A DNA stretch of 32,000 nt, taken from positions 480,001 through 512,000 of the forward strand of contig NC_006138.1 in assembly GCF_000025945.1 (NCBI RefSeq). The letters are read 5' to 3'. Position 1 is the first letter of the stretch; each line of letters starts with the position of its first letter. The notes under the pieces are model-generated. The model did not search any database. It was not told where the DNA came from and saw only the letters and a list, made by a program, of their open reading frames with translations. This document shows positions 11,324 through 32,000 of the stretch, piece after piece. The position numbers and the translations under genes were made by a program. This stretch comes from Desulfotalea psychrophila LSv54. GTDB lineage: Bacteria; Desulfobacterota; Desulfobulbia; Desulfobulbales; Desulfocapsaceae.

Positions 11324-11335
11324 GAAAAATCCTTA

Positions 11336-12019: not shown

Positions 12020-12731
12020 GTTCGGCTACTATCTTACGAGCCCCTTCCGTATCAAGAAAACTCAAAAAATCTGCACACGCCTCTATTTTGACAGAGCTTG
12101 CCATCTCGCCCACAACAATTTTAATAGGCAGGTAGGCCTTTTCATCAACGATGGTATAACCGCCTATGCTTTTTTCAATCTTACGGGCATGGGTAAGGTT
12201 GATAAATGCAAAATCAACTTCACCGGCGACAATATATGATCCTGCCTGAGGTACTGTGGAAACCACAAGAATATTTGGTTTTGCCCCATCGTAAACCCCC
12301 TTGTTTTTCAGATACTCTATGGCCGCCTTGCCATAAATAGCACGGGAGGTATCAGGAATAGCAATGCGGCTTACATCGCTTGCAAGTAAATCATTTGCCC
12401 CCGTGAAATGAGATCCCTTGGGATAAGCTACCACCAATTTTCCCCGTCCCACCAAGGTGGTGGTGGCAAAGCCAAGCTTGGCCCTTTTAAAAAAAGAGGC
12501 ATCACCCAAGACCAGATCTACAGCGCCGCTTACCCGAGCCTGAGCAATTACCCGAGCCATATTTCCATAGATAAGTTCTACCTTATTCCCTGTTTGAGCA
12601 TGATAGGCATCAACAAGGTCATCAACAACGGAACGATATCCCGCTCCAGAGGCAAGGACCACTGCTGCCTGGGAGGAGAGGGGGAGGGCCAACAAAAACA
12701 TTAACAACAAGGATAGGCTACGAACACGCAT
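12009..12731 (-). CDS. periplasmic oxyanion (molybdate/tungstate)-binding protein, ModA-like
   Basis: Signal peptide MRVRSLSLLLMFLLALPLSSQA. The size (about 240 aa) and the segments ASGAGY, AIYGKAA and VPQAGSY resemble ModA-family binding proteins. Confidence 0.7.
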   Translation of the reverse strand: MRVRSLSLLLMFLLALPLSSQAAVVLASGAGYRSVVDDLVDAYHAQTGNKVELIYGNMARVIAQARVSGAVDLVLGDASFFKRAKLGFATTTLVGRGKLVVAYPKGSHFTGANDLLASDVSRIAIPDTSRAIYGKAAIEYLKNKGVYDGAKPNILVVSTVPQAGSYIVAGEVDFAFINLTHARKIEKSIGGYTIVDEKAYLPIKIVVGEMASSVKIEACADFLSFLDTEGARKIVAEHGM

Positions 12732-12755
12732 GAAAAATTCTCCACTTATTCAATA

Positions 12756-13430
12756 TTATTGGGATAATTGGACCGCTCTAAGGTTTTTTTGCCTCTCCAG
12801 CCACTGCGGAGCAAGCCGTCCCTCCTCGACTACACAAATATCATCGGCAAGATAAAAGGCCTCTTCCAAATCGTGGGTAACATGGATTACCGGAATATTA
12901 AGGATCTCTTTTATTTTTTTAAGTTCGCCACGAAGATTGGTTCTGGTGGCCACATCTAAAGCAGAGAAAGGCTCATCGAGCAGAAGCAGGGCCGGTTTAC
13001 GGGCAAGGGCCTGACAGAAGGCAACCCGTTGCCGCTCCCCACCGGAAATCCCAGCAGGCCTGCGCTCAGCGATATGGTCAACACCAAATCGAACCAAGAG
13101 CTCCTGAACGCAATCTTTATCGACGGCGGCAAAGGCCACATTTTTTCTAACCGTGAGATGAGGGAAAAGGGTATATTCTTGGAAGACAAGACCAACACCT
13201 CGATCTTGAGGAGGTATACAGAGATTATTGCAGGTATCATTCCACAGCACTCCGTCAAGGGAAACGGTGCCATGATCAGGACGTTCAAGACCGGAAATAA
13301 TCCTTATCAAGGTACTTTTTCCAGCACCGGATGGACCAACAATGGCGGTAAGAGATCCCGCAGGACAGACCAGAGAGAGGTCCAGGGTAAAATTTGCCAG
13401 CTTCTTACGGATATCCAAACAGAGAGTCAT
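12756..13430 (-). CDS. ABC transporter ATP-binding protein with no TOBE domain
   Basis: Walker A GPSGAGKST, signature ISGGERQRV, Walker B LLLDEP. ATG at 13430; the track begins at TTG 13436. Confidence 0.85.
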   Translation of the reverse strand: MTLCLDIRKKLANFTLDLSLVCPAGSLTAIVGPSGAGKSTLIRIISGLERPDHGTVSLDGVLWNDTCNNLCIPPQDRGVGLVFQEYTLFPHLTVRKNVAFAAVDKDCVQELLVRFGVDHIAERRPAGISGGERQRVAFCQALARKPALLLLDEPFSALDVATRTNLRGELKKIKEILNIPVIHVTHDLEEAFYLADDICVVEEGRLAPQWLERQKNLRAVQLSQ

Positions 13431-14269
13431 AAACAATTACCAATTCCCAAAAAATGCCATCAACAATAGAAGTAGTAAGAAATACAACTTAAATAACATT
13501 TTGCAAGATATAATAAAAACAACTGGGCCACAAAGTACCACTCTGTGGCATCAATTTAATTATGGCAAGTTAACTCTTTTATTCGTTACGGAAAAACTTC
13601 TTATTTACAGCTATTAGATGAGAAAACAAGAGATTAGACTAAAGCCTTAACCAAACAATAACAAATTCGCCAATAAAAACATCACCGCAAGTCTTAGCCA
13701 GAGATCAGCTAAAAGGAAATTGTCGAACGACCATTTAGGACAGGAGCCAATTATCTCTCTATAAAATGTACGGGAGAGGGAGACAGAAACAAACAGCCAT
13801 TTACTGGCTGGGCACAAAAGAAGAAGCCCCCTGACAATCGCCACAAAGATCATTCTCAAGGCAGGGCCACGCTCGTTACGCTACCTCAAACCGACGGCCA
13901 AGACCATCTTGGTCGTCAACTACCCTGGAGGATCTCCACAGAAAAAGCTCTCACAGCCAGTACCAGCTGCAAGTGCTCATTATAAAAAACTGACAAAAAA
14001 GCTCATCTCTTACGGGTGGCAAAGATACCCCCCGGTTCATGGAGATTCTCAAGCAGAAATACAATGAGACAGGGCAACACTACTGATAAAATGCATGCAC
14101 CCAGCAATAGACGACAGGTCGTAAGAGCCAAGTAGCCCTAGCGCTCACAGCTCTTATAATAAAAAAATGTGGGATTCCAGTGTGTTTTGCCGACCCAGAA
14201 AGGGACGACAAAAAAGCAGACAAAGGAGAGTAGCCAACCATAATTGGCTATTGAGCAAACAACTGCCAA

Positions 14270-14316: not shown

Positions 14317-16308
14317 CTAAGCCACCTTAAACCTGCTGACTAGCCTGGCCAACCCCTCGGCAAGCATTGACAGCTCTATGGCATTCTCTTTAACATTCCG
14401 ACTTCCCTGATTGATCTCTTCTGAATCTGATCTAATTATAGTAATTTCCGCTGTCACCTCGCGACTGGCAGTGGAGCTCTCAGCGACATTTCCACTTACC
14501 TCGACAATACCAGATGAGGCCTGAACAATATTTTCTGCAATTTCAGAACTTACCGCAGATTGTTCTTCAACAGCTGTGGCAATAGAGTATATGACCTCAT
14601 TCACCTCTGTTATCACCTCAGTGATTGTCTCGATGCCTGTAATCGAACCCGTTGTTGTCTTCTGCATCTCCTCTATCTGATGCCTGATATCAACGGTTGC
14701 CTCGGCCGTCTGCTTGGCAAGATCCTTTATCTCATTAGCCACAACCGCAAAACCCTTACCCGCATCACCGGCTCGCGCTGCCTCAATGGTGGCATTAAGG
14801 GCAAGCAGGTTAGTCTGCTCAGATATCTCAGTAATTGTCTCAGTAACCCTACCTATCTTGTTGGCCGCAGCCCCAAGCGCACCCATATTCGACGAGGTGT
14901 CAATGGATTGCTGCACTGCCTGTTCAGATATGTTTTTAGCCTTAGCGGCATTCTGAGCGATCTCGTTCACCGTTGCTGTCATCTCTTCCGTGGCCGTAGC
15001 AACCATACCAACATTACCAGCCGACTGTTCCATTGCTGCCGAGACTGAGCTCATATTCACACTCATCTGTTCAGCTGCAGAGGCAACATTTATGGCACGA
15101 CTAGAGGTGTTCTCGGCATTACCAGAGAGTTGCGCTGAAACGGCAGAAAGCTCGGTTGAGGCGGAGGCAAGAGCTGATATATCTTCGACTATCTCCTTAA
15201 TCATTGTCCCAAGCCCAGCCACCATTCTGTTCAGGGCATGAGCCATCCTGCCAATTTCATCCTCTTGAGCAATATCAAGATGAGAGGAGAAATCTCCACT
15301 GGCAAGAACATCCACATAATCCATCATCTTCCCAACAGGCCCCGTAATAGACCTGGTAATAAGCAGGGCTGCGACAAGGCCTATAAGAAGTGCTATTGCA
15401 GAGGTCAGCAATGCTATCATAATAGTCTGCTTACTCTTTGCCTGAACGGCAAGGCCAAGCTGATCCTGTTCCGCCTTGAGGGATAGTTTTAACTCTCTAA
15501 TAATAAGCGACATCTTCGGGCCCATCTTTGCGAGAGTCCCTGAGATTATCCTGTTACACGTGTGTGTATCGGCAACCACTTTTTTAAAACCAGAAAGATA
15601 CTCCTCTGCATCCCTGCTCATATCTGCATTCATTTTTTTTAGGATTGGATCCTGCAGTAGCCTCTGCAAACGTTCTGCCCCTGACAAAAGAGCAGAAATT
15701 TCATCCAAAACAAGCTCTTCATCCAAGTTACTGCTGGTCTTTAAAAATTTAGTAACATAGAGTCTTCCCAAGAGCATATGGCGAAGAAGGACAGCTGCCT
15801 CATAGCCTGTCGCAGCATCACCCTTATCTTTAGCAGAAACCATTAAAGCTGAAAGTTGTTTTTCCATACTTGCACCCTGCACGGCAAGCTCATTCTTAAC
15901 AAGACTGTCACGCTTTTGAGTCAGACTAACAAGCTGGGAAAATGCCTGGTCGTAACGAGCAAAATCAGCCTCATACCTCTCCACGAGTTTGCCCCGTTCA
16001 GGGCTAACCATTCGCTCACGGGCCTCTCTAAGAAATGAACCCATTTCTTCTTTATATTTTAGATAAATGGCAACATCTTTCTCACTTGATGTCGTAATAA
16101 ATCCCTTGACCCCCATACGCATCGTCAGCATATTTGCCTGCAGGCGACCAACGAGATTGGTCTCGTCCGCCATGACCCTATAGGTCACGAAATTATCCGC
16201 CAAAGACCCCAACCCCTGCCAGGCAACGGAGGAGACCAGTAGCAAAAGAACAAGAACGGCCCCAAAGCCTGTGCCAATCTTAGTCGCTAAATTCATTTTA
16301 TTAAACAT
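14317..16308 (-). CDS. methyl-accepting chemotaxis protein with a large helical periplasmic domain, HAMP and MCP signalling domain
   Basis: N-terminal TM, ligand-binding region of about 270 aa, second TM, HAMP. The signalling hairpin is conserved ([35 protein letters not shown]). RBS GGAGTGAG precedes the ATG at 16308. Confidence 0.9.
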
Positions 16309-17033: not shown

Positions 17034-18149
17034 ATGAAAGAAAAAATAGCTGCCCACGACGCTGGGGAGAAGATGTTACTGGAACACAAATATCTGCAAT
17101 CACTTCGTCTCATAACAAGGGGAGTAAGCCACGAATACAACAATATATTCACCGGATTATCTGGGCAATTTCAATTACTCAATAAAGAGATCAAAACAGA
17201 TGACAATCATCACAGAGCCCTGATATCGGAACTTTTAGAACGTGGTTGCCAAAAGACCTCTCTCCTCCATGATTTTTCCAGATATAGTTCAGAGAAAAAA
17301 GAGCTGCACTCAGTGATTCAAGCGGCGGAGATGGCCATTGAATTCCTGGACACAATCTCCAACTCGCACCATTTTACCCTGGAAAGAGGAGAAAACCTCC
17401 CGCGACTGCAGTGCTCCATGAAAGAAATTACCATGGCAATATTTTATCTGGGAGAAAATGCTATTGAGGCAATGCCAGGTGGGGGAACTATTCGAATAGT
17501 AATCAGCACCGACACTGTCCAGACGGGTTTTCTCTCCATCGCTGTCATTGACCGCGGCCGAGGCATAGCCCCTGATATTGAGCATGACCTGTTTAAACCA
17601 TTTATCAGTAGCAAAAATTCTTCAGCAGAAGTCTGCGGTCTTGGATTGTACGCAACCCACTCTATCATGCAACAACACCAGGGCACTGTCTCTATTTCAC
17701 AAGATAAAGACACCGTTGCCACCATCAGCCTGCCATACGAACAAGGGCAAGAGAAACAGGCACCGATGCCCACTCCCCCCCTTATGCAAAGAGACAATCA
17801 GGCAAAGCAGATATTTTTTATTATTGAGGATGACAATGCCCTGCGTGACTTTATCTCCACAGGCCTGCAACGACACGGCCATATAGTCTTCTCAGCTGCA
17901 AGCTGTGCCGAGGCCGTGGAGGAGTTTAAATTTGTCCACGAGATGATCACCGTCATCCTGCTTGATATCGGTTTAAACGACTGTGATGGTTTCAGCTGTC
18001 TTGAAAAAATAGTGCAAATAGATATGCCGAAGCAGATAGTATTCATGTCAGGCGGAGAGATCACAGAGAAGATGAAATATGGTGCCAGGTTCCTGCAGAA
18101 GCCATTCACCATAAAACAGATTGAGGAACTTATATCGCATGCCGAATAA
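17034..18149 (+). CDS. hybrid histidine kinase with no recognisable sensor domain (HisKA + HATPase_c + C-terminal receiver)
   Basis: H-box GVSHEYNNIFTGL lies about 33 aa from the N-terminus. G-boxes DRGRGI and GLGLY. The receiver has IIEDD, ILLDIGL, FMSGG and QKPF. Confidence 0.8.
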   Translation: MKEKIAAHDAGEKMLLEHKYLQSLRLITRGVSHEYNNIFTGLSGQFQLLNKEIKTDDNHHRALISELLERGCQKTSLLHDFSRYSSEKKELHSVIQAAEMAIEFLDTISNSHHFTLERGENLPRLQCSMKEITMAIFYLGENAIEAMPGGGTIRIVISTDTVQTGFLSIAVIDRGRGIAPDIEHDLFKPFISSKNSSAEVCGLGLYATHSIMQQHQGTVSISQDKDTVATISLPYEQGQEKQAPMPTPPLMQRDNQAKQIFFIIEDDNALRDFISTGLQRHGHIVFSAASCAEAVEEFKFVHEMITVILLDIGLNDCDGFSCLEKIVQIDMPKQIVFMSGGEITEKMKYGARFLQKPFTIKQIEELISHAE

Positions 18150-19536
18150 GACGCTAACGAATCACAAATCTGCCCGGGCACTTGTCGTTGATGATGAGAC
18201 TACAATAGCAGATTTTATCGATGATACCCTCACGGCCCAAGGCTATCAGGTGCAATCCTTCTCCGATTCAAAGGCGGCATATGGTATTGCCAGTGCACAG
18301 GATTTTGATATTGCCCTGGTGGATATCAGTATGCCGGGAATAAGCGGGGCACAGCTCTCAAAAAAAATACGAGAACGATCTCCCCAAACAGAAATTATTA
18401 TCATTACAGGCGTTCCAGACCAGGAAAATCTTGAACCATTTCTTAAAATGGGCCTTACCCAATTCCTCTTCAAACCCTTTAATCGGTCACAGCTAGCCTA
18501 CTCAGTCTATGCGGCAATGCACTTCAAGAGGCTCCGAGGTAAATATCTGACCATAGCAGCAGAGACACAGGGAAGTAGCCTCACGGGAATGTCTCGCTCT
18601 ATACGAAACATTCGTCAGGAAATACTCTCGGTGAGCAGAATCAATCTTTCGGTGCTTATCATGGGCGAATCCGGTACGGGAAAAGAGGTTATTGCCCACG
18701 ATGTGCACAAGAACAGCGAGCGCAGCAAAAAACCATTTGTCCCCATTAACTGTGCAACTCTTGGTAGCCTGGCTGAATCTGAGCTCTTTGGACACGAACG
18801 GGGAGCTTTCACCGGCGCGACAAAAACAACCAATGGCTATATAGGTGCCGCCAATGGAGGAACTCTTTTTTTTGATGAGATAGGTGAGCTTGCCCCTGAA
18901 ATCCAGGCAAAGCTTCTCCGTTTTCTCGACGACGGAGAATATAGAAGGGTTGGTAGTTCAGAGATCAGGCATGCCGATACCGGTATTATTGCCGCAACCA
19001 ACAGAGACCTTAAAAATGTGCTGCGAGGGGAGCTTCCGCCAGACCTCTTCTTCCGCCTCTCCGGTTCCGTTATCCAGGTATCACCACTTCGAGAACGTAA
19101 AGCCGATATTTTACCACTTACCCGCCATTTTCTGACCCTCTTTGGCAATGCCAAAAACACCTTCTATGATCTTTCAGCGGAGGCATGCGCCCTTCTCATT
19201 GAAGAGGAGTGGCCAGGCAATACCAGGCAACTCAAGCAGGTACTCTACAAAATCTCCCAGACCTCAACCAACCCCCAATTATCCCTTGCCGATGTACAAA
19301 AAGCCCTGGGAAGAGACAGCAAGAAGCAGGAAATACGTACCTACAAAGAGGCAAAGCATGATTTTTTACTGGAGTTTAACAGAGGATATTTTATTACCCT
19401 CCTCTCTATAACTCGTGGAAGCCTGCAACAGGCCCTGCAGATAAGCGGCATGCATAAAAAGAATTTTTATACAAAAATAAAGCAACTTGGTGTTACGGTA
19501 AAAGATTTCTCCCCAAACAGGCAACAGAAAAGCTAA
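18139..19536 (+). CDS. NtrC-family sigma-54-dependent response regulator (REC + AAA+ + HTH)
   Basis: ATG 18139 overlaps the kinase stop by 11 nt. REC motifs VVDDE and LVDISMPG. AAA+ motifs GESGTGKE, ELFGHERGAFTGA and WPGNTRQL. C-terminal HTH. Confidence 0.9.
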   Translation: MPNKTLTNHKSARALVVDDETTIADFIDDTLTAQGYQVQSFSDSKAAYGIASAQDFDIALVDISMPGISGAQLSKKIRERSPQTEIIIITGVPDQENLEPFLKMGLTQFLFKPFNRSQLAYSVYAAMHFKRLRGKYLTIAAETQGSSLTGMSRSIRNIRQEILSVSRINLSVLIMGESGTGKEVIAHDVHKNSERSKKPFVPINCATLGSLAESELFGHERGAFTGATKTTNGYIGAANGGTLFFDEIGELAPEIQAKLLRFLDDGEYRRVGSSEIRHADTGIIAATNRDLKNVLRGELPPDLFFRLSGSVIQVSPLRERKADILPLTRHFLTLFGNAKNTFYDLSAEACALLIEEEWPGNTRQLKQVLYKISQTSTNPQLSLADVQKALGRDSKKQEIRTYKEAKHDFLLEFNRGYFITLLSITRGSLQQALQISGMHKKNFYTKIKQLGVTVKDFSPNRQQKS

Positions 19537-20763: not shown

Positions 20764-21034
20764 GCAAAGGCTGACATAGAGATAAAATGCTCCTTACAGG
20801 TCTATGCAAACGCTCTCTCAGCAATAAAGTAGCCTTTGCGGATTCATGCAAGGGCTGTCTGCTCAATAAAATGGCCTTTGCGGGTTCATGCAAGGGCTGT
20901 CGGAGCAATAAAATGGTCTTTGCGGGTCTCCGCAAGGGCTCTCCGCTTAATAAAGTAGCCTTTGCTGGTTCACGCAAGGTCGTTTTATTAGCTTTGCGGA
21001 TCTTTGCAAGGTCGTTTTATTAGTTTAGGACTTT
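20764..21034. repeat. tandem array of five 42-bp units plus two shortened units (32 and 29 bp), each unit junction forming a hairpin
   Basis: Units start at 20764, 20806, 20848, 20890, 20932, 20974 and 21006. The core reads GCAAGGGCTGTCNGCTCAATAAAATGGCCTTTGCGGGTTCAT. At each junction GCCTTTGC-N8-GCAAGGGC forms an 8-bp inverted repeat. Confidence 0.9.
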
Positions 21035-21128: not shown

Positions 21129-21701
21129 TCAACTCTGCTCACATCGTCTACGGCCTGATGAGACCAGGGGCGGGGCATGCTGGAATGAATCTGGCACATG
21201 GCTGATAAGAGTAGCCTTCAGGGCATCAATCCCCCTACCCTGCCGAGCGCTTACCGCCTGACAGGCAATTCCGTAAAGCCGGCAAAATTGTTCTATCTCC
21301 TGCGAGACAGGGTGAAGATCTATCTTGTTCTGAACAAGAATAAGGGGAACCTTTTGCCGCAGCAGCAGTTCAAGCTCCTGCATATCCCCTGTCGTAAGTC
21401 GTCCGCCTGCCACCACAAAGATAATCATATCGGAACGACTAACTATTTTTTTGCTTGCCTGGACCCGGAGAAGACCTAGCTCACCGCTATCGTCGGTGCC
21501 GACGGTATCGTAAAAGGTAACGGGCCCAAGGGGGAGCAACTCATAGTGCTTTAAAACAGGATCCGTCGTTGCTCCCTCCTGAGACGAAACGCTGGAGACC
21601 TGACCACAGAGGGCATTAAGCAGCAGAGATTTCCCCACATTGCGACGACCTAAAAGAGTAATAACAAGGCGCGAGGATCGTGCTGTTTGCCTATTGCTCA
21701 T
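21129..21701 (-). CDS. hydF: HydF-like [FeFe]-hydrogenase maturation GTPase truncated to the G domain (possible gene remnant)
   Basis: 190 aa from ATG 21701, preceded by AGGAGG. GRRNVGKS, TTDPV, DTVG and NKID align with the HydF G domain. The ORF stops where HydF normally continues for about 200 aa, covering the dimerisation and FeS (CxH...HCxxC) domains. Confidence 0.7.
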   Translation of the reverse strand: MSNRQTARSSRLVITLLGRRNVGKSLLLNALCGQVSSVSSQEGATTDPVLKHYELLPLGPVTFYDTVGTDDSGELGLLRVQASKKIVSRSDMIIFVVAGGRLTTGDMQELELLLRQKVPLILVQNKIDLHPVSQEIEQFCRLYGIACQAVSARQGRGIDALKATLISHVPDSFQHAPPLVSSGRRRCEQS

Positions 21702-21741
21702 AGAGCCTCCTTCTGGATCTAAGACCATTATTTACCACCTT

Positions 21742-22686
21742 CTATACAACAGACGCCACTGAGATAGGCAAAGGGGGCCTCACCTTGGCGGGGTAAATTT
21801 GATAATTCCTGCCCACTCCCGGCAAGGGCATTGCCTCCATGATCACGTTACAACCATGGTCAAGGGCCTTTTCACGCTGACAGTCCACAACCTTTGGCCC
21901 AAGAAGAGAGGCAAGAGCGCTTGTGGCTGAAATATGGGCACGGGGATTACAGAGACGCAGGAGGGCAAGACAGCGATGGCTAAGATCGAGACTACCGGCA
22001 GCCATCTTCCCCAGGGGCGTTTGCGGATGAGGGACAAAGGGGCCTGCCGTAATCATATGCAACTCTAATTTTGAGAGAAACATGATATCAGCGGCTAAGA
22101 GGGCAAGGGGATCTTGATCTGGAGAGGGCAGACCGACAATACAGCCAGAGCCCGTTTCATAGCCAAGAGCCTGCAGATGCCGTAAACTTTGCAGACGACT
22201 GGCAAAGGAACAACCGGGGCGATAGCGGTTATGAAGCTGCCAATTTGTACTTTCAAGCTTAAGCAGATAACGATCTGCCCCCGCGCCCTTCCACAGGGCC
22301 AGGGTCTGACGGTCCTGCTCGCCGAGACAAAGGGTTATGGCAACCGAACTGGCAGCACGTATCTCGGCAATAAGCTCGGCAATATCTTCTGCCGAAAAGA
22401 AGCTATCCTCACCAGCCTGAAGGACCAGAGTCTCAAACCCCATCTCCACAGCATCACGGGCACAGGCGACGATCTCCTCTCTGCTCATTCGGTAACGCCT
22501 ACCCGCATTGGCTCTGCGCAAGCCACAGTAGTGACAGTTACGCCGACAGTAGCTCGACAACTCAACAATGGCAAACAGATGAACAGAGCGACCAAAGCGA
22601 GCCACTGTCTGCTTCTTCGCCTCGGCAAAGAGCCAGCCATCGTGATGACCGGCAAGGAACTCCTCTATTTCTTTAAAGTTAAACAT
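21742..22686 (-). CDS. hydE: [FeFe]-hydrogenase maturase HydE (radical SAM)
   Basis: CRRNCHYCGLR radical-SAM motif. LVLQAGED, ITLCLGE, GADRYLLKLES and GCIVGLP match the HydE/BioB-like pattern. Sits between hydG and hydF. Confidence 0.85.
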   Translation of the reverse strand: MFNFKEIEEFLAGHHDGWLFAEAKKQTVARFGRSVHLFAIVELSSYCRRNCHYCGLRRANAGRRYRMSREEIVACARDAVEMGFETLVLQAGEDSFFSAEDIAELIAEIRAASSVAITLCLGEQDRQTLALWKGAGADRYLLKLESTNWQLHNRYRPGCSFASRLQSLRHLQALGYETGSGCIVGLPSPDQDPLALLAADIMFLSKLELHMITAGPFVPHPQTPLGKMAAGSLDLSHRCLALLRLCNPRAHISATSALASLLGPKVVDCQREKALDHGCNVIMEAMPLPGVGRNYQIYPAKVRPPLPISVASVV

Positions 22687-22688
22687 AA

Positions 22689-24098
22689 TTAAATATACAG
22701 ATCCCTCTCACCTGCCTCCATACGAGCAAGCTGAGCCATGAGCTGTTTCTTCACCGCCGGAGTAGAACTCTCCAGCTCATGGGCAATCTGCCTCATACCT
22801 GCCGCAAGGGTTGCAGGAGAAGCATAATCCTGTAGGTACTCATTAAAGGTCATGACCGAATTGGGATGACAAAATTTCTGGATAAACCCATCCTTGGCCA
22901 GGCTCATAAAATATTCACCGGTGCGTCCCGTCCGATAGCAGGCAGTACACCATGAGGGCATAAAGCCATGCTGTACCAGATCCAAAACAACATCGTCGAG
23001 GCTACGATGGTCCCCCACAGAGAACTGTTGACTGGTGGGCTGATCAGAGACGGGATTACTATAAGCCCCCGGATAGGTACGAGAAGCCGCACTAATCTGT
23101 GAAATACCAAGCTGAAGAAGCTCGGTGCGCATGGCAGCACTCTCCCGGGTACTCATTATCATACCGGTATAAGGCACTGCCAGACGCGTTATGGCAACGA
23201 TCTTCTTAAAGGTATAATCAGAGATTGCATAGGGTGGAGCCAGAGAAATATCGGAGCCAAGCGCTGGTTCCAGACGAGGAAAAGAGATGGTATGCGGACC
23301 GGCCCCCCAACGCCTCTCCAGCTCTTCTGCATGCTTTAGCATAGAGAGCAGTTCAAAACGATGATCATAGAGGCCAAAGAGGACACCAATACCGACATCA
23401 TCAATACCAGCCTCTTGGGCACGATCCATGGCCTGCAATCGCCACAGATAATTAGTTTTATTACCGGCAAGGTGCATCTTTTCATAGGTCGGCTGATGAT
23501 AGGTCTCCTGAAAACATTGATAGGTACCAATCTTTGCCTGGTGAAGAAGTTTAAAACCTGCCACATCCAGGGGGGCACAGTTAATGTTGACCCGACGAAT
23601 AGAACCACTCTTATCAGAGAGGGTCTCATAAACGGTGCCGACACTCTCTGCTATAAAAGTTGCATCAAGCTTGGGATGTTCTCCATAAACCAGAAGCAGT
23701 CGTTTTTGCCCACTATTTTCCAGGACACGCACATCACTGGCTATCTCTTCAGGGCTCAGGGTTTTACGAACAAGCTCCTTATTGGTGGCGTTAAAGCCGC
23801 AGTAGCGACACTGATTAACACATTCATTGGAGATATAGAGCGGAGCAAAGAGAACAATACGGTTGCCGTAGGTTGCCTGTTTTACCTGCTTGGCTGTCGC
23901 AAAAATTTCTGCATCAAGCTCGGCATTGTCATTTTCTAGAAGAATGGCAACATCCAGCAGGGAAAGCCCCTTCTTCTCCCCTGCCTTGGCCAGAATTTCT
24001 CGAACAAGGGAGGGCGCAGGCTGCTGGGCCTTATCAATAATACTCCACACCTGCTCTGCATCTATAAAATTATCTGTGGTATCCGGTTGTATTAGCAT
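22689..24098 (-). CDS. hydG: [FeFe]-hydrogenase maturase HydG (radical SAM tyrosine lyase)
   Basis: 469 aa from ATG 24098 (RBS AGGAA). CVNQCRYCGF motif and C-terminal cluster motif CTACYRTGRTGEYFM. The start lies 29 nt inside the 3' end of the upstream regulator gene. Confidence 0.9.
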   Translation of the reverse strand: MLIQPDTTDNFIDAEQVWSIIDKAQQPAPSLVREILAKAGEKKGLSLLDVAILLENDNAELDAEIFATAKQVKQATYGNRIVLFAPLYISNECVNQCRYCGFNATNKELVRKTLSPEEIASDVRVLENSGQKRLLLVYGEHPKLDATFIAESVGTVYETLSDKSGSIRRVNINCAPLDVAGFKLLHQAKIGTYQCFQETYHQPTYEKMHLAGNKTNYLWRLQAMDRAQEAGIDDVGIGVLFGLYDHRFELLSMLKHAEELERRWGAGPHTISFPRLEPALGSDISLAPPYAISDYTFKKIVAITRLAVPYTGMIMSTRESAAMRTELLQLGISQISAASRTYPGAYSNPVSDQPTSQQFSVGDHRSLDDVVLDLVQHGFMPSWCTACYRTGRTGEYFMSLAKDGFIQKFCHPNSVMTFNEYLQDYASPATLAAGMRQIAHELESSTPAVKKQLMAQLARMEAGERDLYI

Positions 24099-25503
24099 GA
24101 TCTGTTCCTGGCGCCTGCATGGATGATGCCAGGCGGTTATAGAGAGTACGAATAGAGATGCCCAGAGTATGGGCAGCCTGTGTTTTATTGCCGCCACACT
24201 GCTTAATGGCAGACTCCACCTCTTCCTTGCTCACTCTTTTTTTTCTTAAAAGCGGCGCATGAACTGGCGGGGAAGGTGGTCGAAGATTCTCTTGACCATC
24301 TCCAAGGACGGTGAGACGATGAGCTATATGTTCCGGCAGGAGAAGGGGGGCATCAAACATAAAAGTTGCCCACTCCATAAGATTTTTTAATTCACGCACA
24401 TTTCCCGGCCAGGGGTGCTGGAGGAGAAGTTGACAGGCAGCTTCACTTATATTGTGAAACTTCTTATGCCGTTTTTGTGAAGATTGGCGCAGGAGCATCC
24501 GAGCCAGGGGCAGTATATCTTCCCGCCGTTCCCGCAGGGCCGGGATGTATATATGTCCCACCTTAAGACGATAGTAGAGATCCTTACGAAAAGAGCCGTC
24601 GGCTACATGACTGTCAAAGTCAATATTAGTGGCGGCAATAACTCGAATATCGGTGGGAATATGACGCAGACCGCCAACACGATAAAAAGTTTTCTCTTCG
24701 AGGACCCGGAGGAGTTTTGCCTGCAACTCGGTGGGAATCTCTGCAATCTCATCAAGAAAGAGGGTTCCACCATGAGCACAGTCCAACTTACCCTGCTTAC
24801 CACGACTAACAGCACCGGTAAAAGCTCCGGAATCATAGCCAAAAAGCTCACTTTCAAAGAGAGAGGGAGATATTGCCGTACAGTTGATATCAACAAATGG
24901 TAGCAGTGATTTACTCCGGCCAAAATGAATGATTTTAGCAATGATCTCTTTACCCACCCCCGTTTCACCTTCAATCAGGACCGGGATGGAGCGATCGGTA
25001 TGATACATCTCCGCATGACGCACTACCTCCTGCATCTGGGCAGAAAAAAAGCCAAGCCCATATTGACCGAGGCCATCTACCACATTAACAGCTCCTTCTC
25101 TTCCCCCTCCGCTCAGACTGGCTGACACATTGGTTTCCCCCTCCTCGGCGGCAAGAATTACCCCCACGGACTGATACTCCACAATGCTTCCATCTGCCCG
25201 AAAGAGCCCCCTGTTGATATACTCAAGGTACTGAATCCTCCCATCCTTGCAGATAAATTTAGGCCGGGTCGTCACCTCCGCATTTTCCGGGGTTATGGAA
25301 AAAATATCGGCAATGATATCCTCCCGCTCATCCTCACTAAGAAAGGTGGCCAGATTACTGCCTATCATCTCATCAACCGTCTTTTCATAAAAATCAGCGC
25401 AAGCAGCGTTAACAAAGGTAATTGTCCCGTCAGCCTGAAAGGCACGAATGAGTTCATTCTTTTCTGGTAGCATCTGATCCGATACAACTTTACTCTGCGG
25501 CAT
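24070..25503 (-). CDS. sigma-54-dependent transcriptional activator (PAS + AAA+ + Fis-type HTH)
   Basis: N-terminal PAS domain (TITFVNAACADFY...). GETGVGKE, ELFGYDSGAFTGA, WPGNVRELKN. HTH GGNKTQAAHTLGISIRTLYNRL. ATG 25503 is preceded by GGGAGA and overlaps the upstream hycB-like gene by 14 nt. ATG 25473 is an alternative start. Confidence 0.88.
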   Translation of the reverse strand: MPQSKVVSDQMLPEKNELIRAFQADGTITFVNAACADFYEKTVDEMIGSNLATFLSEDEREDIIADIFSITPENAEVTTRPKFICKDGRIQYLEYINRGLFRADGSIVEYQSVGVILAAEEGETNVSASLSGGGREGAVNVVDGLGQYGLGFFSAQMQEVVRHAEMYHTDRSIPVLIEGETGVGKEIIAKIIHFGRSKSLLPFVDINCTAISPSLFESELFGYDSGAFTGAVSRGKQGKLDCAHGGTLFLDEIAEIPTELQAKLLRVLEEKTFYRVGGLRHIPTDIRVIAATNIDFDSHVADGSFRKDLYYRLKVGHIYIPALRERREDILPLARMLLRQSSQKRHKKFHNISEAACQLLLQHPWPGNVRELKNLMEWATFMFDAPLLLPEHIAHRLTVLGDGQENLRPPSPPVHAPLLRKKRVSKEEVESAIKQCGGNKTQAAHTLGISIRTLYNRLASSMQAPGTDHANTTGYHR

Positions 25504-26092
25504 AAATAAGGTCTCCCTGAGCAATAGCACAGTGCCCCAACTTGGAGGCGGCTCTCTGCCGTTTTGATGTCACATTCCCACGCAGGCCGGAAGCAGGCAC
25601 CAGACTGAGGGCTTCGGCTGGACAGATGGCAACACAGGCAGGCTGATCATGGCCTGCACAGAGATCACACTTTGAAACGACAAAAAAAGATTTCTGCTGT
25701 GCCTCTTCCCCACCCTCTACTTGCCCTGAATCCTCGGTGAGCAGGAGTTGATTCCTGGTCGTCTCAACAATCTGTATTGCCCCAAAGGGACAGGCGAGGA
25801 GACAACTCTTACACCCTACACAGAGTTCAGCGATAACATCAATATGAGATTCTCTCTGAACTATTGCCCCTACCGGACAGGCGTTTGCACAGGGAGAGTC
25901 TTCACACTGCCGACACTGCACGGGCACCGTCACCTCTGCCACCTTAACCAGGTTGAGGCGGGAAACAAATGGCGTATTCCGAGCAATAAGTTCTCCTGCG
26001 GGCAGATCCTCATGGGCGCGGGCACAGGCAACCATACAGGCCTGGCAACCAATACAGAGACGGGCATCCCCCAAGACAAAGGAGTTCATCAT
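25490..26092 (-). CDS. HycB/HydN-like polyferredoxin with four [4Fe-4S] motifs
   Basis: CIGCQACMVAC, CRQCEDSPCANAC, CVGCKSCLLACP and CDLCAGHDQPACVAICP. 4-nt overlap with the hydA stop. Confidence 0.85.
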   Translation of the reverse strand: MMNSFVLGDARLCIGCQACMVACARAHEDLPAGELIARNTPFVSRLNLVKVAEVTVPVQCRQCEDSPCANACPVGAIVQRESHIDVIAELCVGCKSCLLACPFGAIQIVETTRNQLLLTEDSGQVEGGEEAQQKSFFVVSKCDLCAGHDQPACVAICPAEALSLVPASGLRGNVTSKRQRAASKLGHCAIAQGDLIYAAE

Positions 26093-27468
26093 TGCCTCCT
26101 CTGTAATGTATGATCGGTATGGAGCAGCTCATGGGCCTGATGGCCAAGGGGCTCACCTAAAAACTTCTCGTACAGTTTCTTTATCTCTGGATTTTCATGG
26201 GACTTACGAACAGGAAGGGCTTTATCATGGGAATATAATCCTGCTCTTCGTCCTGCATGCGCCTCTAGCACCTGGCTAGGCAGAAGAGTTTTCGGTTGCC
26301 CTCCACCGCTTACACAACCCATGGGACAACACATCACCTCCATAAACTGGAAGTCCGCCTCACCAGCTCGTACCTGCTCTAACAGGGGCGCAATATCGGC
26401 AAGCCCCGCAGCTATGGCAACTCGGAGTTCCACCCCCTCGTGCTGAACAGTGGCAAAGCGTACCCCCTCTCCACCCCGGACATAGTCCAACTCAACACTC
26501 GGCAGTGGTTTTCCCGTAAGTACCTCACAGGCACTGCGAAGGGCCGCCTCCATTACCCCACCCGTGGTGCCGAAAATATTACCGGCTCCGGAATAACAGC
26601 CCAAAGGATTATCAAACTCCGCATCTGCCAGGGCGAGAAAATCAATCCCCACATGCTTGAGTAGCTGAGCAAGTTCCCGAGTGGTAATAACAAGATCAAC
26701 ATCGCGATAACCGCTGGCAGCCATCTCCGGCCGCTCACACTCAAACTTCTTGCAGGTACAGGGCATAACGGCAAGACTGAATATCTTTTCAGGGGCAATA
26801 CCAGCCTCTTGGGCCCCATAGGTTTTAAAGAGGGTGCCCGCCATCTGTTGCGGCGATTTACAGCTGGAGAGATGCTCAAGCAGATCGGGATATTGGTCTT
26901 CGACAAACTTCACCCAACCGGGACAACAGGAGGTAAACATGGGAAGCTTACCCTGCCCTCCTATCCGGGCAATAAGTTCAGCACCCTCCTCCATGATGGT
27001 GAGGTCAGCAGCAAAGTTGGTATCATATACCTTGGTAAAGCCCAGGGCATGAAGAGCAGCAGCCAGTTTCCCGGGAGTAAGAGAGCCATAGGGCATGCCA
27101 AACTCTTCACCAAGTGCAACCCGGACTGCGGGAGCACATTGAACAAAGGTAGAGACTTCATCGTCAGCAAGTGCTGCCAGAAGGGGAAATATATCACCCC
27201 GATAGTGAGCGGCAAAGAGAGGTTCGACAACCGTGGCCAGCATACCGCGATTTTGCAAACGCTTACCACGACCAGTGGCATAGCTCATAAGATCCGAATC
27301 GTAACCACTGCATATCTGCACACACTGACCACAGAATATGCAGGCATCTGTGTCTATCTGATGAGCTCTATTAAGTCTGCCGGAGATAGCCCCGACAGGG
27401 CAAACCTCCTTACATCTGCCACAGCCTGTACAGAGTTCCTGATCGATGGAAATAATAGCTTTTGTCAT
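26089..27468 (-). CDS. hydA: [FeFe]-hydrogenase catalytic subunit with two N-terminal ferredoxin-type clusters plus the H-cluster domain
   Basis: H-cluster signatures TSCCPGWVKF, MPCTCKKFE and EVMCCPMGCVSGGGQP. N-terminal CTGCGRCKEVCP and CIFCGQCVQIC. 459 aa from ATG 27468 (RBS GAGGG). Confidence 0.9.
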   Translation of the reverse strand: MTKAIISIDQELCTGCGRCKEVCPVGAISGRLNRAHQIDTDACIFCGQCVQICSGYDSDLMSYATGRGKRLQNRGMLATVVEPLFAAHYRGDIFPLLAALADDEVSTFVQCAPAVRVALGEEFGMPYGSLTPGKLAAALHALGFTKVYDTNFAADLTIMEEGAELIARIGGQGKLPMFTSCCPGWVKFVEDQYPDLLEHLSSCKSPQQMAGTLFKTYGAQEAGIAPEKIFSLAVMPCTCKKFECERPEMAASGYRDVDLVITTRELAQLLKHVGIDFLALADAEFDNPLGCYSGAGNIFGTTGGVMEAALRSACEVLTGKPLPSVELDYVRGGEGVRFATVQHEGVELRVAIAAGLADIAPLLEQVRAGEADFQFMEVMCCPMGCVSGGGQPKTLLPSQVLEAHAGRRAGLYSHDKALPVRKSHENPEIKKLYEKFLGEPLGHQAHELLHTDHTLQRRQ

Positions 27469-27481
27469 TATAATAGCCCTC

Positions 27482-28090
27482 TTAAACTGAGTAATTTCTG
27501 CCAACAGCGGCCAGGCTAAGGGCAGCTGCCTGCATTCGATGCGCTCTATGCTCCCGAGGTACAACCAGCTGCAATGCCTGTTGAGGACAGTTCAGCACAC
27601 AGGCGGGTTGCTCTTCTCCTATACAGAGATCACATTTATTGGCCACCAAACGCTGCTTGTAACGATTATGCAGACCAGAAATACTGCAATCATCCTCACA
27701 AAGGCTAAGGTGTTGCATCACGGCATGACCGTTACGAAAGAGGGGCACCAGTTCCATGGCCCCAAAGGGGCAGGCAAGCATACATGTCTTACAGCCCATA
27801 CATTTTTCCTCATCAACAAATATCACCCCATCTCTTTGGCTGATGGCCTCGACCTGGCATACATTTGCACAGGGAGCATCCTCACAATGACGACACTGAA
27901 CGGGAACATAGGCCTCATGATAGCGAACAAGATGAAGCCGTGGCTGAATGGGACTCATCATACTCCCCACGGTCAGTGGACGATTTCCCTGGGAATGCAC
28001 CTGAGAACAGGCTATTTCACAAATTCGGCAGCCGATACACCTAGTGGAATCTGCGACGACGAAGCTGTTTAAGCTCTGCTTTTTCTTCAT
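27482..28090 (-). CDS. HycB/HydN-like polyferredoxin with four [4Fe-4S] motifs
   Basis: CIGCRICEIAC, CRHCEDAPCANVC, CMGCKTCMLACP and CDLCIGEEQPACVLNCP. 4-nt overlap with the fdh stop. Confidence 0.85.
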   Translation of the reverse strand: MKKKQSLNSFVVADSTRCIGCRICEIACSQVHSQGNRPLTVGSMMSPIQPRLHLVRYHEAYVPVQCRHCEDAPCANVCQVEAISQRDGVIFVDEEKCMGCKTCMLACPFGAMELVPLFRNGHAVMQHLSLCEDDCSISGLHNRYKQRLVANKCDLCIGEEQPACVLNCPQQALQLVVPREHRAHRMQAAALSLAAVGRNYSV

Positions 28091-30171
28091 ACCATCTGCC
28101 TCTTTCTTCTATTATGGGGGGATACAGCCTTCCTCTCTACCTTTTGTACAGAGACAGCGCATATTTTCAGTTCCGGTGTCTGAGTTATAGGATCGGCGGC
28201 GCTATTGGTCAGCATATTTCCCGAACTTTCCGTATAGTGAAATGTCATAAAAACAAGACCCTGAATTACCCGAGTCGTTACCTGGGCCCTGGCCTCTACT
28301 GCTCCACGCCGCGAGGCCACCCGAACCAGATCACCATCAATAATGCCCAGACAGAGAGCATCATGGGGATGGATCTCAACCAACTCATGGGGTGCTACCC
28401 CATTCAGCCCCCAACAACGACGAGTCATGGTTCCGGTATGGTAATGAGCAACAACACGGCCGGTTGTCAGTTTCAGGGGATAATCTGTGTCTGGTACCTC
28501 GGCGGGTTGCCTATGTTGGGCAGGCTCAAAACGGGCCAGGCCACGAATAGCCCCACCCACATGTAAGACCGGTGTACCGGGATGATTTTCATGGGGACAG
28601 GGCCACTGCAGAGATTCATTCTCCAACCGTTCATAGGTAATACCGGCATAGGTAGGGGTAAGAGATCGCATCTCGGCAAAGATCTCCCGAGGATGGGTAT
28701 AGGACGAGGGATACCCCAGAGCCACCATCAACTCGCTGATGATTTGCCAATCTGGCCTGCTCTCACCAATGGGATCAACCGCCCGACGAACGCGCTGTAC
28801 CCTACGCTCTGTACTGCTGAAGGTGCCATCTTTTTCAGCAAATGTGGTTCCGGGAAAGACCACATCGGCAAGCGCTGCTGTTTCCGTGAGAAAAATATCC
28901 TGCACCACGAGAAACTCCACCTGTTCCAGACAGTGCTTAACGTGGTTAATATCAGGGTCACTGCGCAGAGGGTTTTCGCCAAAGACATAGAGAGCCTTCA
29001 CCTCATCTCGTTCTATCCCGCTTAGAACAGAGGGAATAGTAATCCCTGGACGCGCCGAGAGCTCGACCCCCCAGGCCCTAGAAAATTTCTCCACAATCTC
29101 TGGTCGGCTCACCTTCTGATAGCCAGGAAATACATCGGGTAGGGCCCCCATATCGCAAGCCCCCTGGACATTATTTTGTCCACGCAGGGGGTTTACCCCT
29201 GTTTTAGCACGACCAATATTACCAGTAAGAATGGCAACATTAGAGACAGCCATCACGTTATCCACTCCGGAGGTGTGCTGGGTTATCCCCATGGTATAAT
29301 AGGTAGCCACATTGGCGGATTCGCCAAGAATACGAGCCGCCTTCTCCATATCAGCCAATGCCACAGCTGTTATGCTCTCAGCCTCGGCAAGGGATATTTT
29401 TTCCACAAATGACCTATAGGCAGAAAAATTTTCCGTGTGAGCATCAATATAGACCCTGTCTTCCAAGCCATCACGCAGAATAAGATGGCCCAGAGCATTG
29501 AGAAGGGCAACATCACTGCCGGGCTGAAGACGAAGCCATACCTCTGCGTGTTGGGTAAGGGTGGTCGCCCGAGGGTCAGCCACAATAAGCCGGGCACCAC
29601 GTTTGACGGCCCGAAGCATACCAAGACCAATAATAGGATGACACTCCGTCGTGTTGGTGCCGATGGCAAAAATCGTATCACCTGCCCCCATGGTATCAAG
29701 CTCTGCAATGGAGTTGGTCATCGCCCCGCTTCCAAGTGTTGTGGTCAGACCGGCCACGGTGGGAGCATGTCAGAGACGGGCGCAATGATCAACGGAGTTG
29801 GTGCCAAGTGCTGCCCGCATCATCTTTTGAAAGAGGTAATTTTCTTCGTTGGTACAGCGGGCAGAACTAAATCCAGCAATGGCCTGAGCCCCATGCTCTT
29901 CTGAAATTTGGAGAAGACGTTGAGCCGTATAGCTATATGCCTCCTGCCAACTGACGGGGGTGAGAACACCTTTTTTTCTGATCAGTGGTTTGGTTAGGCG
30001 ATCTTTGCTGTGCACAAAATCCGTACCAAAATGTCCTTTGGAACAGAGAGAGCCATTATTTACCGCCCTCACTCTGTTTGGGCTAACCCCGGTAATAGTA
30101 TTATTCTCTACTTCTAAAAAAAATGTGCACCCTGAGCCACAGTAAGGACAGGTTGTCAGTGTTTTTTGCAT
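28087..30171 (-). CDS. fdhF: selenocysteine-containing formate dehydrogenase catalytic subunit, FdhF/FdhH-like and cytoplasmic (UGA at 29770-29772 read as Sec)
   Basis: Two track ORFs (29770..30216 and 28087..29757) are in the same frame and separated only by TGA. The joined sequence reads [30 protein letters not shown], which is the FdhH Sec motif. N-terminal 4Fe-4S motif CPYCGSGCTF...C. No Tat signal. 694 aa from ATG 30171. Confidence 0.9.
29733..29772 (-). promoter_or_regulatory. UGA(Sec) codon plus candidate bacterial SECIS hairpin
   Basis: mRNA reads UGA CAU GCU CCC ACC GUG GCC GGU CUG ACC ACA. GUGGC/GACCAC can pair with a bulged A and an apical CGGUCU loop. The GGUCUG resembles the apical part of the E. 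coli fdhF SECIS. Confidence 0.5.
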
Positions 30172-30208: not shown

Positions 30209-30229
30209 CTGTGCACAAAACATGCACAG
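30209..30229. promoter_or_regulatory. perfect 7-bp inverted repeat at the predicted 5' end of the fdh-hyd transcript (operator or 5' stem-loop)
   Basis: CTGTGCA-caaaaca-TGCACAG. It lies between the -12 element and the fdh start codon. Confidence 0.35.
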
Positions 30230-30242
30230 ACACATAAAAGTT

Positions 30243-30258
30243 AGCATATTGCGTGCCA
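30243..30258 (-). promoter_or_regulatory. sigma-54 (-24/-12) promoter of the fdh-hycB-hydA operon
   Basis: Minus strand reads TGGCACGCAATATGCT against the consensus TGGCACG-N4-TTGCW, with exact spacing and one mismatch. The predicted start near 30232 is about 60 nt upstream of ATG 30171. Confidence 0.65.
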
Positions 30259-30498: not shown

Positions 30499-32000
30499 AT
30501 GGCAAATATAATACCCATTGGTAGCATCCCGACAAAAGAGCAGATGCAAAGAGTTATCAGAGCATCGCATAAACGCTCAAGACAATATGGTGTTAATCAA
30601 GAAACCCGTAATCTTGAGCAAAAAAGACTCTCTCCGGCAGAACTTGAAAAGAAGCAGGATGAAAACAAGGAACTGTTAGGTGCTATTGCCGCTACCATTA
30701 ATGAATTTTATGACCTGATGTCTCCCGAGGAATTTCTGGTGGGTTTTGCCGATAGTGAGGGCTATATCCTCCATCTAGCTGGAGGAGACAGGGCAAGAGA
30801 AACGTCAGCTGACCGTCAATTCTCCCTGGGCTACCGTTGGACGGAAAAAGATGTAGGCACCACGGCAACCAGCCTCTGCCTTCGGCTTAAAGTCTCTATT
30901 CAGCTCAAGGGCAGGGATCATTACTGTAAACAGGCTCAGGGCCTCCTCAGCTCCGCAGCACCAATTTTCGGCCACCAGGGCGTTCTTCTGGGATCACTCT
31001 GCATTTTTGGCGACAAGAGCCTTATTCATCCCCACACGCTTATTATGATAACCTCGTCAGCACGCTCTATTGAGCGGCATATGAGGTTAATGCGCTGGAA
31101 TACAGAGCTGATAAGCAATGCGGGTTTTCTCGATAATGTCATAGAAGCTGCCGGAACGGGCCTACTGATAATTGACACAGACTTAATCGTTCAGAAGATC
31201 AACTATCAGGCTAAGAAAATCCTTAATGTCGATGATCTTAAGGGAAAGTCAATTTCATCCCTAAGTGGCCTCCAGCTCGATCTGGACAGCATCTTTGAAA
31301 ACCCCAGTGTATGGAAAAACAGAGAGTGCCACATCCAACATAATAAAAAAGATATTCACCTTGTCTACTCTGCCCAACCAGTACTGTCAAAGAACGACAA
31401 ACCCCTCGGGGCAGTCCTTAACATCACTAAATTTAGTAATATCAGAAAATTAATTGATAAGATCTCCGGCATTAAACCCTATTTTACCTTTGATTCCCTA
31501 ATAGGATCATCACCGGCCTTTACCAAGGCTGTTGATTTGGCAAAGCGTGCCTCTCACTCAGAGGCTACTGTACTTCTTCTGGGAGAGACAGGCACAGGCA
31601 AGGAACTATTTGCTCAGGCGATCCATAACGGCGCCAAGGGAGCGGACAAACCATTTGTGCCAATTAACTGCGGGGCTATACCCGGAGAGCTGCTTGAGAG
31701 CGAACTCTTTGGCTATGCCGAGGGTGCTTTTACCGGGGCTAAAAGAGGGGGGCGATCTGGAAAATTTATTTTGGCAAACGACGGAACCATGCTCCTCGAT
31801 GAGATTGGAGACATGCCACATGATATGCAGGTCAAGCTATTGCGCGTCCTGCAATCAAAGGTAGTCCAGCCAGTGGGGGCACGCAAGCCACTGCAAACCA
31901 ATGCAAGAATAATCGCCTCAACCCATGTTGACCTGGCAGAGGCTATGCTCCACAACCGATTCAGACGGGATCTCTACTATCGTTTGAATATACTGCAGAT
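30499..32000 (+). CDS. sigma-54-dependent activator, AcoR/FhlA-like (N-terminal GAF-like domain + PAS + AAA+), 3' end outside the window
   Basis: Not in the ORF track because there is no stop before the window end. My translation of this frame is open from 30499 to 32000: MANIIPIG...VIRASHKRSRQYGV...LLGETGTGKELFAQAIH...ELFGYAEGAFTGA...RRDLYYRLNILQ. ATG 30544 is an alternative start. Confidence 0.85.
   Translation, partial: MANIIPIGSIPTKEQMQRVIRASHKRSRQYGVNQETRNLEQKRLSPAELEKKQDENKELLGAIAATINEFYDLMSPEEFLVGFADSEGYILHLAGGDRARETSADRQFSLGYRWTEKDVGTTATSLCLRLKVSIQLKGRDHYCKQAQGLLSSAAPIFGHQGVLLGSLCIFGDKSLIHPHTLIMITSSARSIERHMRLMRWNTELISNAGFLDNVIEAAGTGLLIIDTDLIVQKINYQAKKILNVDDLKGKSISSLSGLQLDLDSIFENPSVWKNRECHIQHNKKDIHLVYSAQPVLSKNDKPLGAVLNITKFSNIRKLIDKISGIKPYFTFDSLIGSSPAFTKAVDLAKRASHSEATVLLLGETGTGKELFAQAIHNGAKGADKPFVPINCGAIPGELLESELFGYAEGAFTGAKRGGRSGKFILANDGTMLLDEIGDMPHDMQVKLLRVLQSKVVQPVGARKPLQTNARIIASTHVDLAEAMLHNRFRRDLYYRLNILQ

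Follow-up and report, generated by a model that had tools for sequence, protein, structure and literature searches.

A putative hydrogen-dependent CO2 reductase operon with its own sigma-54 activator and maturase genes in the psychrophilic sulfate reducer Desulfotalea psychrophila LSv54

Hydrogen-dependent CO2 reductases (HDCRs) store hydrogen as formate and are, to our knowledge, the fastest known biological catalysts hydrogenating CO2; the characterised members that we know of all come from Firmicutes. Direct, reversible H2:CO2 oxidoreductase activity of a purified complex has been shown only for the enzymes of Acetobacterium woodii, Thermoanaerobacter kivui and Clostridium beijerinckii. In the T. 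kivui enzyme (FdhF-HycB3-HycB4-HydA2; PDB 7QV7) the C-terminal helices of HycB3 and HycB4 are reported to cross-link the HDCR nanowire (Dietrich 2022). The operon considered here is encoded by the marine psychrophilic sulfate reducer Desulfotalea psychrophila LSv54 and lies on the minus strand of a stretch of 32,000 nucleotides (NC_006138.1, positions 480,001 to 512,000; hereafter the window), to which all its coordinates refer. An initial annotation made from the letters alone had guessed at a sulfate-reducing host with proteobacterial-like genes, which agrees with the source of the DNA.

That the cluster is a putative HDCR has been known since 2018. 'Desulfotalea psychrophila LSv54, DP_RS02385-02370' is listed among 25 putative HDCR gene clusters (Schwarz et al. 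2018, Table S1), and D. psychrophila is one of five sulfate reducers named with HDCR-type clusters by Schuchmann et al. (2018), who suggested that in sulfate reducers they serve CO2 reduction for carbon fixation. Since the locus has been catalogued for this long, its identification itself adds little. What is added here is the definition of the whole unit with its regulator and maturases, a conserved sigma-54-type promoter element, the truncation of hydF, and a gene order unlike that of T. kivui.

The operon probably encodes an HDCR-type module of FdhF, two HycB proteins and an [FeFe]-hydrogenase that would interconvert formate with H2 and CO2, a reading that draws on sequence comparison. Its four structural genes are directly followed by four co-directional genes:

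fdhF, 30171..28087, minus strand: 694 aa, cytoplasmic formate dehydrogenase with Mo/W-bis(pyranopterin guanine dinucleotide) (Mo/W-bisPGD)
hycB 'g2', 28090..27482, minus strand: 202 aa, HycB4-type polyferredoxin with four [4Fe-4S] clusters, predicted C-terminal helix P178-V202
hydA, 27468..26089, minus strand: 459 aa, M2-type [FeFe]-hydrogenase (HydA2-type)
hycB 'g4', 26092..25490, minus strand: 200 aa, second polyferredoxin with four [4Fe-4S] clusters, HycB3-like tail
sigma-54 activator, 25503..24070, minus strand: enhancer-binding protein with PAS, sigma-54 AAA+ and HTH_8 domains (domain and family profiles, synteny)
hydG, 24098..22689, minus strand: radical-SAM H-cluster maturase (TIGR03955)
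hydE-like gene, 22686..21742, minus strand: radical-SAM maturase, short at 314 aa (TIGR03956)
hydF remnant (hydF'), 21728..21129, minus strand: 199 aa, GTPase domain only (partial match to TIGR03918)

fdhF overlaps g2 by 4 nt, as hydA does g4, and a 13-nt gap separates g2 from hydA. Mapping of the open reading frames (ORFs) on the minus strand bears out the four genes, coordinates and junctions of the initial annotation. Its span of 25490-30171 holds for the structural genes and falls short of the full unit, which extends from roughly 30258 to roughly 21129; the operon it described stands, and the continuation into the sigma-54 activator and hydGEF, together with the truncation of hydF, had been overlooked.

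For all four structural subunits the best match among all PDB sequences is a chain of 7QV7, over the full length or nearly so, and every cluster-binding and H-cluster motif is preserved, in line with the HDCR subunit inventory (FdhF + HycB + HycB + HydA2) that had been proposed. Comparison loci were taken from Desulfosediminicola (L001), a metagenomic relative (L002) and a metagenome-assembled genome of Solidesulfovibrio sp. (L003). The order fdhF-hycB-hydA-hycB-activator-hydG is kept in the first two, with 67-77% identity.

HydA has the predicted length of about 459 aa and, as also predicted, two N-terminal cluster motifs of the form CxxCxxCxxxC(P) (C13-C23 and C43-C53). The H-cluster motifs TSCCP179, MPC235 and GGGQP388 are all present. 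The protein contains the Fe_hyd_lg_C and Fe_hyd_SSU domains and passes TIGR02512 ([FeFe] group A). Its scores are too low for the curated thresholds of the clostridial and A6 models; NF040763, the model for group A6, gives 544 bits where 765 are required and aligns with the H-domain alone. HydA2 of 7QV7 is matched with 616.8 bits and 58.6% identity in an ungapped alignment over 456 aa. Among the other solved hydrogenases the next best match reaches 391 bits, with bifurcating HydA1 at 383 and CpI at about 348. As HydA2 is the top match by so wide a score margin, a grouping of HydA with bifurcating or sensory enzymes, which the initial annotation had named as the finding that would speak against its reading, is not supported.

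The same evidence bears on whether the operon could instead encode an electron-bifurcating formate dehydrogenase-hydrogenase of the HytA-E/FdhA type or a membrane-bound [NiFe] formate hydrogenlyase (FHL). Such enzymes share with the locus the general pairing of a formate dehydrogenase with a hydrogenase, which alone could recommend them, and Escherichia coli HycB (7Z0S_B) ranks third among the PDB matches for both g2 and g4. Domain and family profile scans found no flavoprotein, no NuoE-, NuoF- or HytB-like protein and no membrane subunit in or adjoining the operon, and the non-structural genes of the unit are one regulator and maturases only. HydA has no extra N-terminal clusters, its scores stay below the A6 and clostridial cut-offs, and the hydrogenase is [FeFe], not [NiFe]. 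Gene content therefore excludes both the Hyt-type and the [NiFe] enzyme, whose probability is negligible, and the initial annotation was right to set the membrane-bound hydrogenlyase aside.

FdhF exceeds the TIGR01591 cut-off of 666.25 with 827.7 bits and comprises the Molybdop_Fe4S4, Molybdopterin and Molydop_binding domains. Its best PDB match is the FdhF of the T. kivui HDCR in 7QV7 (761.5 bits, 51.9% identity). The N-terminus reads MQKTLTTCPYC with no signal sequence ahead of it, and a single TGA codon stands in frame at 29772..29770, corresponding to residue U134 in the active-site motif CARL-U134-H. These features match the cytoplasmic FdhF-like selenocysteine (Sec) enzyme of the initial annotation, and from the sequence insertion of Sec at U134 is likely. 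The codon is accompanied by a candidate selenocysteine insertion sequence (SECIS):

SECIS-like hairpin, 29775..29717, minus strand: starts at the UGA codon, Rfam SECIS_3 (RF01989)

The match to SECIS_3 covers the full model with 35.9 bits (E 8.6e-7 in a small search), where the gathering score is 63, and a scan of the whole window at Rfam gathering thresholds gave no match. In the orthologues from Desulfosediminicola and the metagenomic relative the TGA is kept and is followed by a hairpin with compensatory stem changes (GUGGUC/GACCAC and GUGGAA/UUCCAC). The upper stem in the window (29745-29761, minus strand) is GUGGCC...GACCAC and contains one C-A mismatch where Desulfosediminicola pairs U-A, so that the hairpin is weaker than in the orthologues. 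When the 58 nt behind the UGA are folded for minimum free energy alone, the result is not better than for shuffled sequences (z +1.23), and the case for a SECIS element therefore rests on the sub-threshold SECIS_3 match together with the conservation among orthologues. As the initial annotation had stated, fdhD was not found in the window, the scan covering ORFs of at least 200 aa; an FdhD protein does exist in D. psychrophila (PDB 2PW9).

The two small proteins g2 and g4 are HydN/HycB-like by family profiles and each has 16 invariant cysteines arranged in four [4Fe-4S] motifs. By sequence and predicted structure g2 is clearly of the HycB4 type: its best PDB match is T. kivui HycB4 (7QV7; 196.8 bits, 48-50% identity), aligned to at most two residues from the C-terminus, and its AlphaFold2 (AF2) model, which like that of g4 was built from a 41-row alignment, has a predicted local distance difference test score (pLDDT) of 90.2 and finds 7QV7_B as best Foldseek match (template modelling score 0.82/0.91, root-mean-square deviation 2.6 Å). 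g4 matches HycB4 with 135.6 bits and HycB3 with 120.3 bits, the identity to HycB3 being about 37-41%. The best Foldseek match of its model (pLDDT 82.3) is 7QV7_A, that is HycB3, and when the families are aligned jointly, that of g4 shares with T. kivui HycB3 a tail segment, xVxxKR, which is three residues longer and is missing from the HycB4 family. Because of this indel and the Foldseek rank, and by these two alone, g4 may be read with moderate confidence as the HycB3 equivalent.

After the last Cys-Pro there follow 33 aa in g2 and 42 aa in g4; the tails of about 25-35 aa that had been described fit the former, the latter being slightly longer. In the AF2 models both tails end in a long C-terminal helix, placed where T. 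kivui has its filament helices; a prediction of the tail helices had been proposed by the initial annotation. The predicted helix of g2 spans residues 178-201 (pLDDT about 92-94) and by alignment corresponds to P190-R210 of T. kivui HycB4, with which it also shares the sequence pattern P-x-E-x4-R-x3-AALS; that of g4 spans 167-198 (pLDDT about 79 falling to 61) and corresponds to G159-K184 of HycB3. On these models, filament assembly through the long HycB helices is plausible, which strengthens the speculation of the initial annotation that the tails could act in this way.

HycB/HydN-type proteins are also generic electron connectors, and the NCBIfam matches of this pair to HydN, AegA and YgfT are all under cut-off. 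The operon might accordingly hold two separate ferredoxin-linked modules, FdhF-HycB and HydA-HycB, each exchanging electrons with the cytoplasmic ferredoxin pool. Such an arrangement could also accommodate the Solidesulfovibrio locus, in which hycB-hydA-hycB occurs without an adjacent fdhF and near a membrane-bound [NiFe] hydrogenase-type cluster. Yet the two HDCR core subunits are the nearest matches of the HycB pair, which has also kept the filament helices. Purification of the A. woodii, T. kivui and C. beijerinckii enzymes yielded complexes of four subunits, and measurements on the latter two showed direct coupling of H2 and formate. Two independent modules are thus distinctly improbable.

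The Solidesulfovibrio region itself (L003, 7728-20754) places the hycB-hydA-hycB unit between focA/mobA-like genes and the [NiFe] hydrogenase-type cluster, which includes genes for a proton-antiporter-like protein, an NADH dehydrogenase subunit 1-like protein and the [NiFe] large subunit and is followed by fdhD. Judged from gene content, this suggests the same hydrogenase module in a different wiring.

In the D. psychrophila operon, read as an HDCR, two polyferredoxins of four clusters each would link a Sec-containing Mo/W-bisPGD FdhF to an M2-type HydA. Going by their T. kivui homologues, the HycB3-like g4 would be the docking partner of FdhF and the HycB4-like g2 that of HydA. Direct electron flow along the [4Fe-4S] chains would then interconvert H2 plus CO2 and formate with no need for NAD(P), free ferredoxin or a membrane, while the C-terminal helices of both HycBs would allow assembly into nanowires. 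Complex formation, direct coupling, filamentation and sigma-54 control are all inferred for this operon. The physiological role would probably be that of a formate/H2 valve or a formate supply and not acetogenesis.

Regulation of the unit appears to involve sigma-54. The candidate promoter lies ahead of fdhF:

sigma-54-type -24/-12 element TGGCACGCAATATGCT, 30243..30258, minus strand: 87 nt upstream of the fdhF ATG

TGGCACGCAATATGCT deviates from TGGCAC-N5-TTGCW by one mismatch, and the same element is found upstream of the fdhF orthologues at -108 in Desulfosediminicola and at -104 in the metagenomic relative, that is in three of three loci including the window. Sites matching the sigma-54 consensus are not commoner in the window than expected by chance, so that support for the promoter comes from its positional conservation only. 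Transcription would most likely start here and probably extends over the eight co-directional, overlapping genes fdhF, hycB, hydA, hycB, PAS-sigma-54 activator, hydG, hydE and hydF'. The activator has a probable ATG at 25503, which makes it overlap g4 by 14 nt, and is syntenic in Desulfosediminicola and the metagenomic relative with 67-69% identity (67% to the former). It stays far under the cut-off of the FhlA model NF011958. By analogy, the operon may be sigma-54-dependent and autoregulated by this protein, as FhlA controls the E. coli formate hydrogenlyase.

Downstream of the sigma-54 element and ahead of the ATG, the fdhF leader contains a 9-bp stem-loop (CTGTGCATGTTTTGTGCACAG) followed by TTTT (30209-30229, minus strand), a possible attenuator or else a palindrome for protein binding. 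Divergently from fdhF (30499-32000, plus strand) lies a gene for a second sigma-54 enhancer-binding protein, which extends past the end of the window; the N-terminal half of the protein is DhaR-like and is followed by PAS and AAA+ domains. As this gene is not syntenic in Desulfosediminicola or the metagenomic relative, it is less likely to be the cognate regulator than the activator within the operon. Further away, at 17034-19536 (plus strand) and 14317-16308 (minus strand), there are a hybrid histidine kinase/receiver paired with a response-regulator sigma-54 activator, the third sigma-54 activator in 32 kb, and a methyl-accepting chemotaxis protein.

The distal genes encode maturases of the H-cluster in uneven states of preservation. 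HydG scores 511.3 bits against TIGR03955 (cut-off 312) and is 76% identical to its Desulfosediminicola counterpart, as are FdhF and HydA, whereas HydE and HydF' share only 37% and 34.5% identity with theirs. HydE reaches 243.7 bits with TIGR03956, for which the cut-off is 254.6. HydF' matches positions 1-175 of the 392 in TIGR03918 with a score under the cut-off. It stops at the point where a complete HydF would enter its dimerisation domain, and it has no dimerisation, tetramerisation or FeS domain. The NCBI annotation likewise gives the product as a 190-aa 'GTPase' only, and a tblastn search with a full-length HydF query found the C-terminal HydF domains in no frame of the window. Among the 120 best relatives of one full-length Desulfocapsaceae HydF (at least 53% identity) there is no full-length D. 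psychrophila protein, and a homologue search with the truncated HydF gave no second D. psychrophila copy; a divergent copy could escape both searches. The nearest relatives of HydF' are HydFs of Cloacimonadota (46-48% identity). The low identity of HydE and HydF' to Desulfosediminicola suggests a history different from the rest of the operon, and on sequence grounds the maturase end appears to be of different origin.

A 42-nt tandem array of about five units (20804-21023) lies directly downstream of hydF'. The units hold the palindrome CCTTTGCGG-N6-GCAAGGG, which has five matches where 0.01 would be expected by chance. Two short HydF-like GTPases from metagenomes (L084, 6001-7207, and L085, 6001-7228) were considered as precedents for a GTPase-only HydF and rejected, as an ORF with HydF_dimer/HydF_tetramer domains directly follows each of them, which marks them as split or frameshifted hydF calls.

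Recombinant HDCR has been produced with hydG, hydX, hydE and hydF co-expressed, and given that hydF is truncated in LSv54, hydrogenase activity in this strain is not to be assumed. It is conceivable that the hydrogenase half is inactive or decaying, with HydA present as apo-protein and at most an FdhF-HycB formate dehydrogenase working with another electron partner. The halt of hydF' at the dimerisation domain with a repeat array behind it, the divergence of HydE and HydF' from Desulfosediminicola and the failure of homologue searches to find a second D. psychrophila HydF would all fit such decay. On the other hand fdhF, both hycB genes, hydA, hydG and hydE are intact ORFs in which catalytic and cluster motifs and translational coupling are kept, a divergent or split hydF may exist elsewhere in the 3.52-Mb genome, and one paper assigns a further [FeFe]-hydrogenase type to D. 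psychrophila, for which maturases would be needed too. Loss of the hydrogenase half is therefore considered unlikely. A more elaborate proposal accepts the truncation as functional: an HDCR nanowire under sigma-54 control would act as a formate/H2 valve in the cytoplasm of this psychrophilic sulfate reducer, which is not an acetogen, and would be matured without the canonical HydF scaffold, either by a GTPase-only HydF or with a scaffold supplied in some other way. Taken as a whole this proposal is very improbable. The truncation of the native hydF matters in any case to anyone expressing or assaying the D. psychrophila enzyme.

The assignment as an HDCR, which remains the probable one, has to be held against several observations. 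Within the locus these are the SECIS match below the Rfam gathering score with its C-A mismatch, the HydE score slightly under the curated cut-off, the reduction of the adjacent hydF to its GTPase domain with the scaffold domains gone, the narrowly higher score of g4 with HycB4 than with HycB3, and the chance-level frequency of sigma-54 sites. From the literature it may be added that no sulfate-reducer enzyme of HDCR type has been biochemically characterised, and that fhl mutants of Desulfovibrio (Oleidesulfovibrio) alaskensis G20 were without growth phenotype on formate or lactate.

A Sec-containing, cold-adapted HDCR from a marine sulfate reducer would be of possible biotechnological interest. 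It would also bear on how sulfate reducers handle formate and H2 in the cytoplasm, be it for cycling, for formate supply to C1 assimilation or for redox venting.

The window contains, in addition, a canonical modABC operon and a second uptake set composed of a ModB-like permease, a SBP_bac_11 binding protein and an ATP-binding cassette ATPase, with a gene of the DUF364 family ('putative heavy-metal chelation') behind it; together they span 1724-4301 and 10592-13436, both on the minus strand. Two uptake systems of the Mo/W type, their metal specificity being putative, thus lie within 25 kb of an operon for a Mo/W enzyme.

Among described systems, the T. kivui HDCR has the same four subunit types and cluster motifs as the D. 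psychrophila module, with C-terminal HycB helices at positions homologous to those predicted here. It differs in that its FdhF uses Cys where that of D. psychrophila has Sec, and in length (743 aa against 694 aa), a ~38-aa insertion and a C-terminal extension being absent from the D. psychrophila protein. The T. kivui genes are ordered fdhF-hycB3-hycB4-hydA2-fdhD, whereas in D. psychrophila the order is fdhF-hycB4like-hydA-hycB3like with no adjacent fdhD and with the sigma-54 activator and hydGE(F') embedded in the operon. T. kivui is moreover a thermophilic acetogen and D. psychrophila a psychrophilic sulfate reducer.

The A. woodii HDCR (fdhF1-hycB1-fdhF2-hycB2-fdhD-hycB3-hydA2), which forms filaments in vitro, has in common with the locus a Sec-containing FdhF2, a HydA2-type hydrogenase and HycB connectors, a likeness drawn here by gene content only. 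Unlike D. psychrophila it has duplicated fdhF/hycB pairs, one with Cys and one with Sec, and fdhD lies inside the cluster. CbFdh/Hyd of the non-model host C. beijerinckii (2026), a third enzyme of the class, is a non-bifurcating tetramer of group A4 for which both FHL and HDCR activity have been measured. As in D. psychrophila, its hydA is flanked by two hycB genes; it differs in having a Cys-FdhF, in that its genes are divided between two operons that include Fdh maturation factors, and in its Firmicute host.

[quoted passage not shown] (2011), of the same predicted class of FdhF, two HycB and [FeFe]-hydrogenase. D. alaskensis G20 and D. psychrophila both appear in one published list of putative HDCR clusters. 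The G20 enzyme has been studied genetically only, and Desulfovibrio-type HydAs are about 62-63% identical to D. psychrophila HydA. The E. coli FHL (FdhF-HycBCDEFG) in turn shares with the D. psychrophila operon a Sec-FdhF, a HycB-type four-cluster connector and sigma-54 expression through a dedicated activator, but it is membrane-bound with a [NiFe] hydrogenase, and its regulator FhlA has a sensory module of the GAF type where the D. psychrophila activator has PAS.

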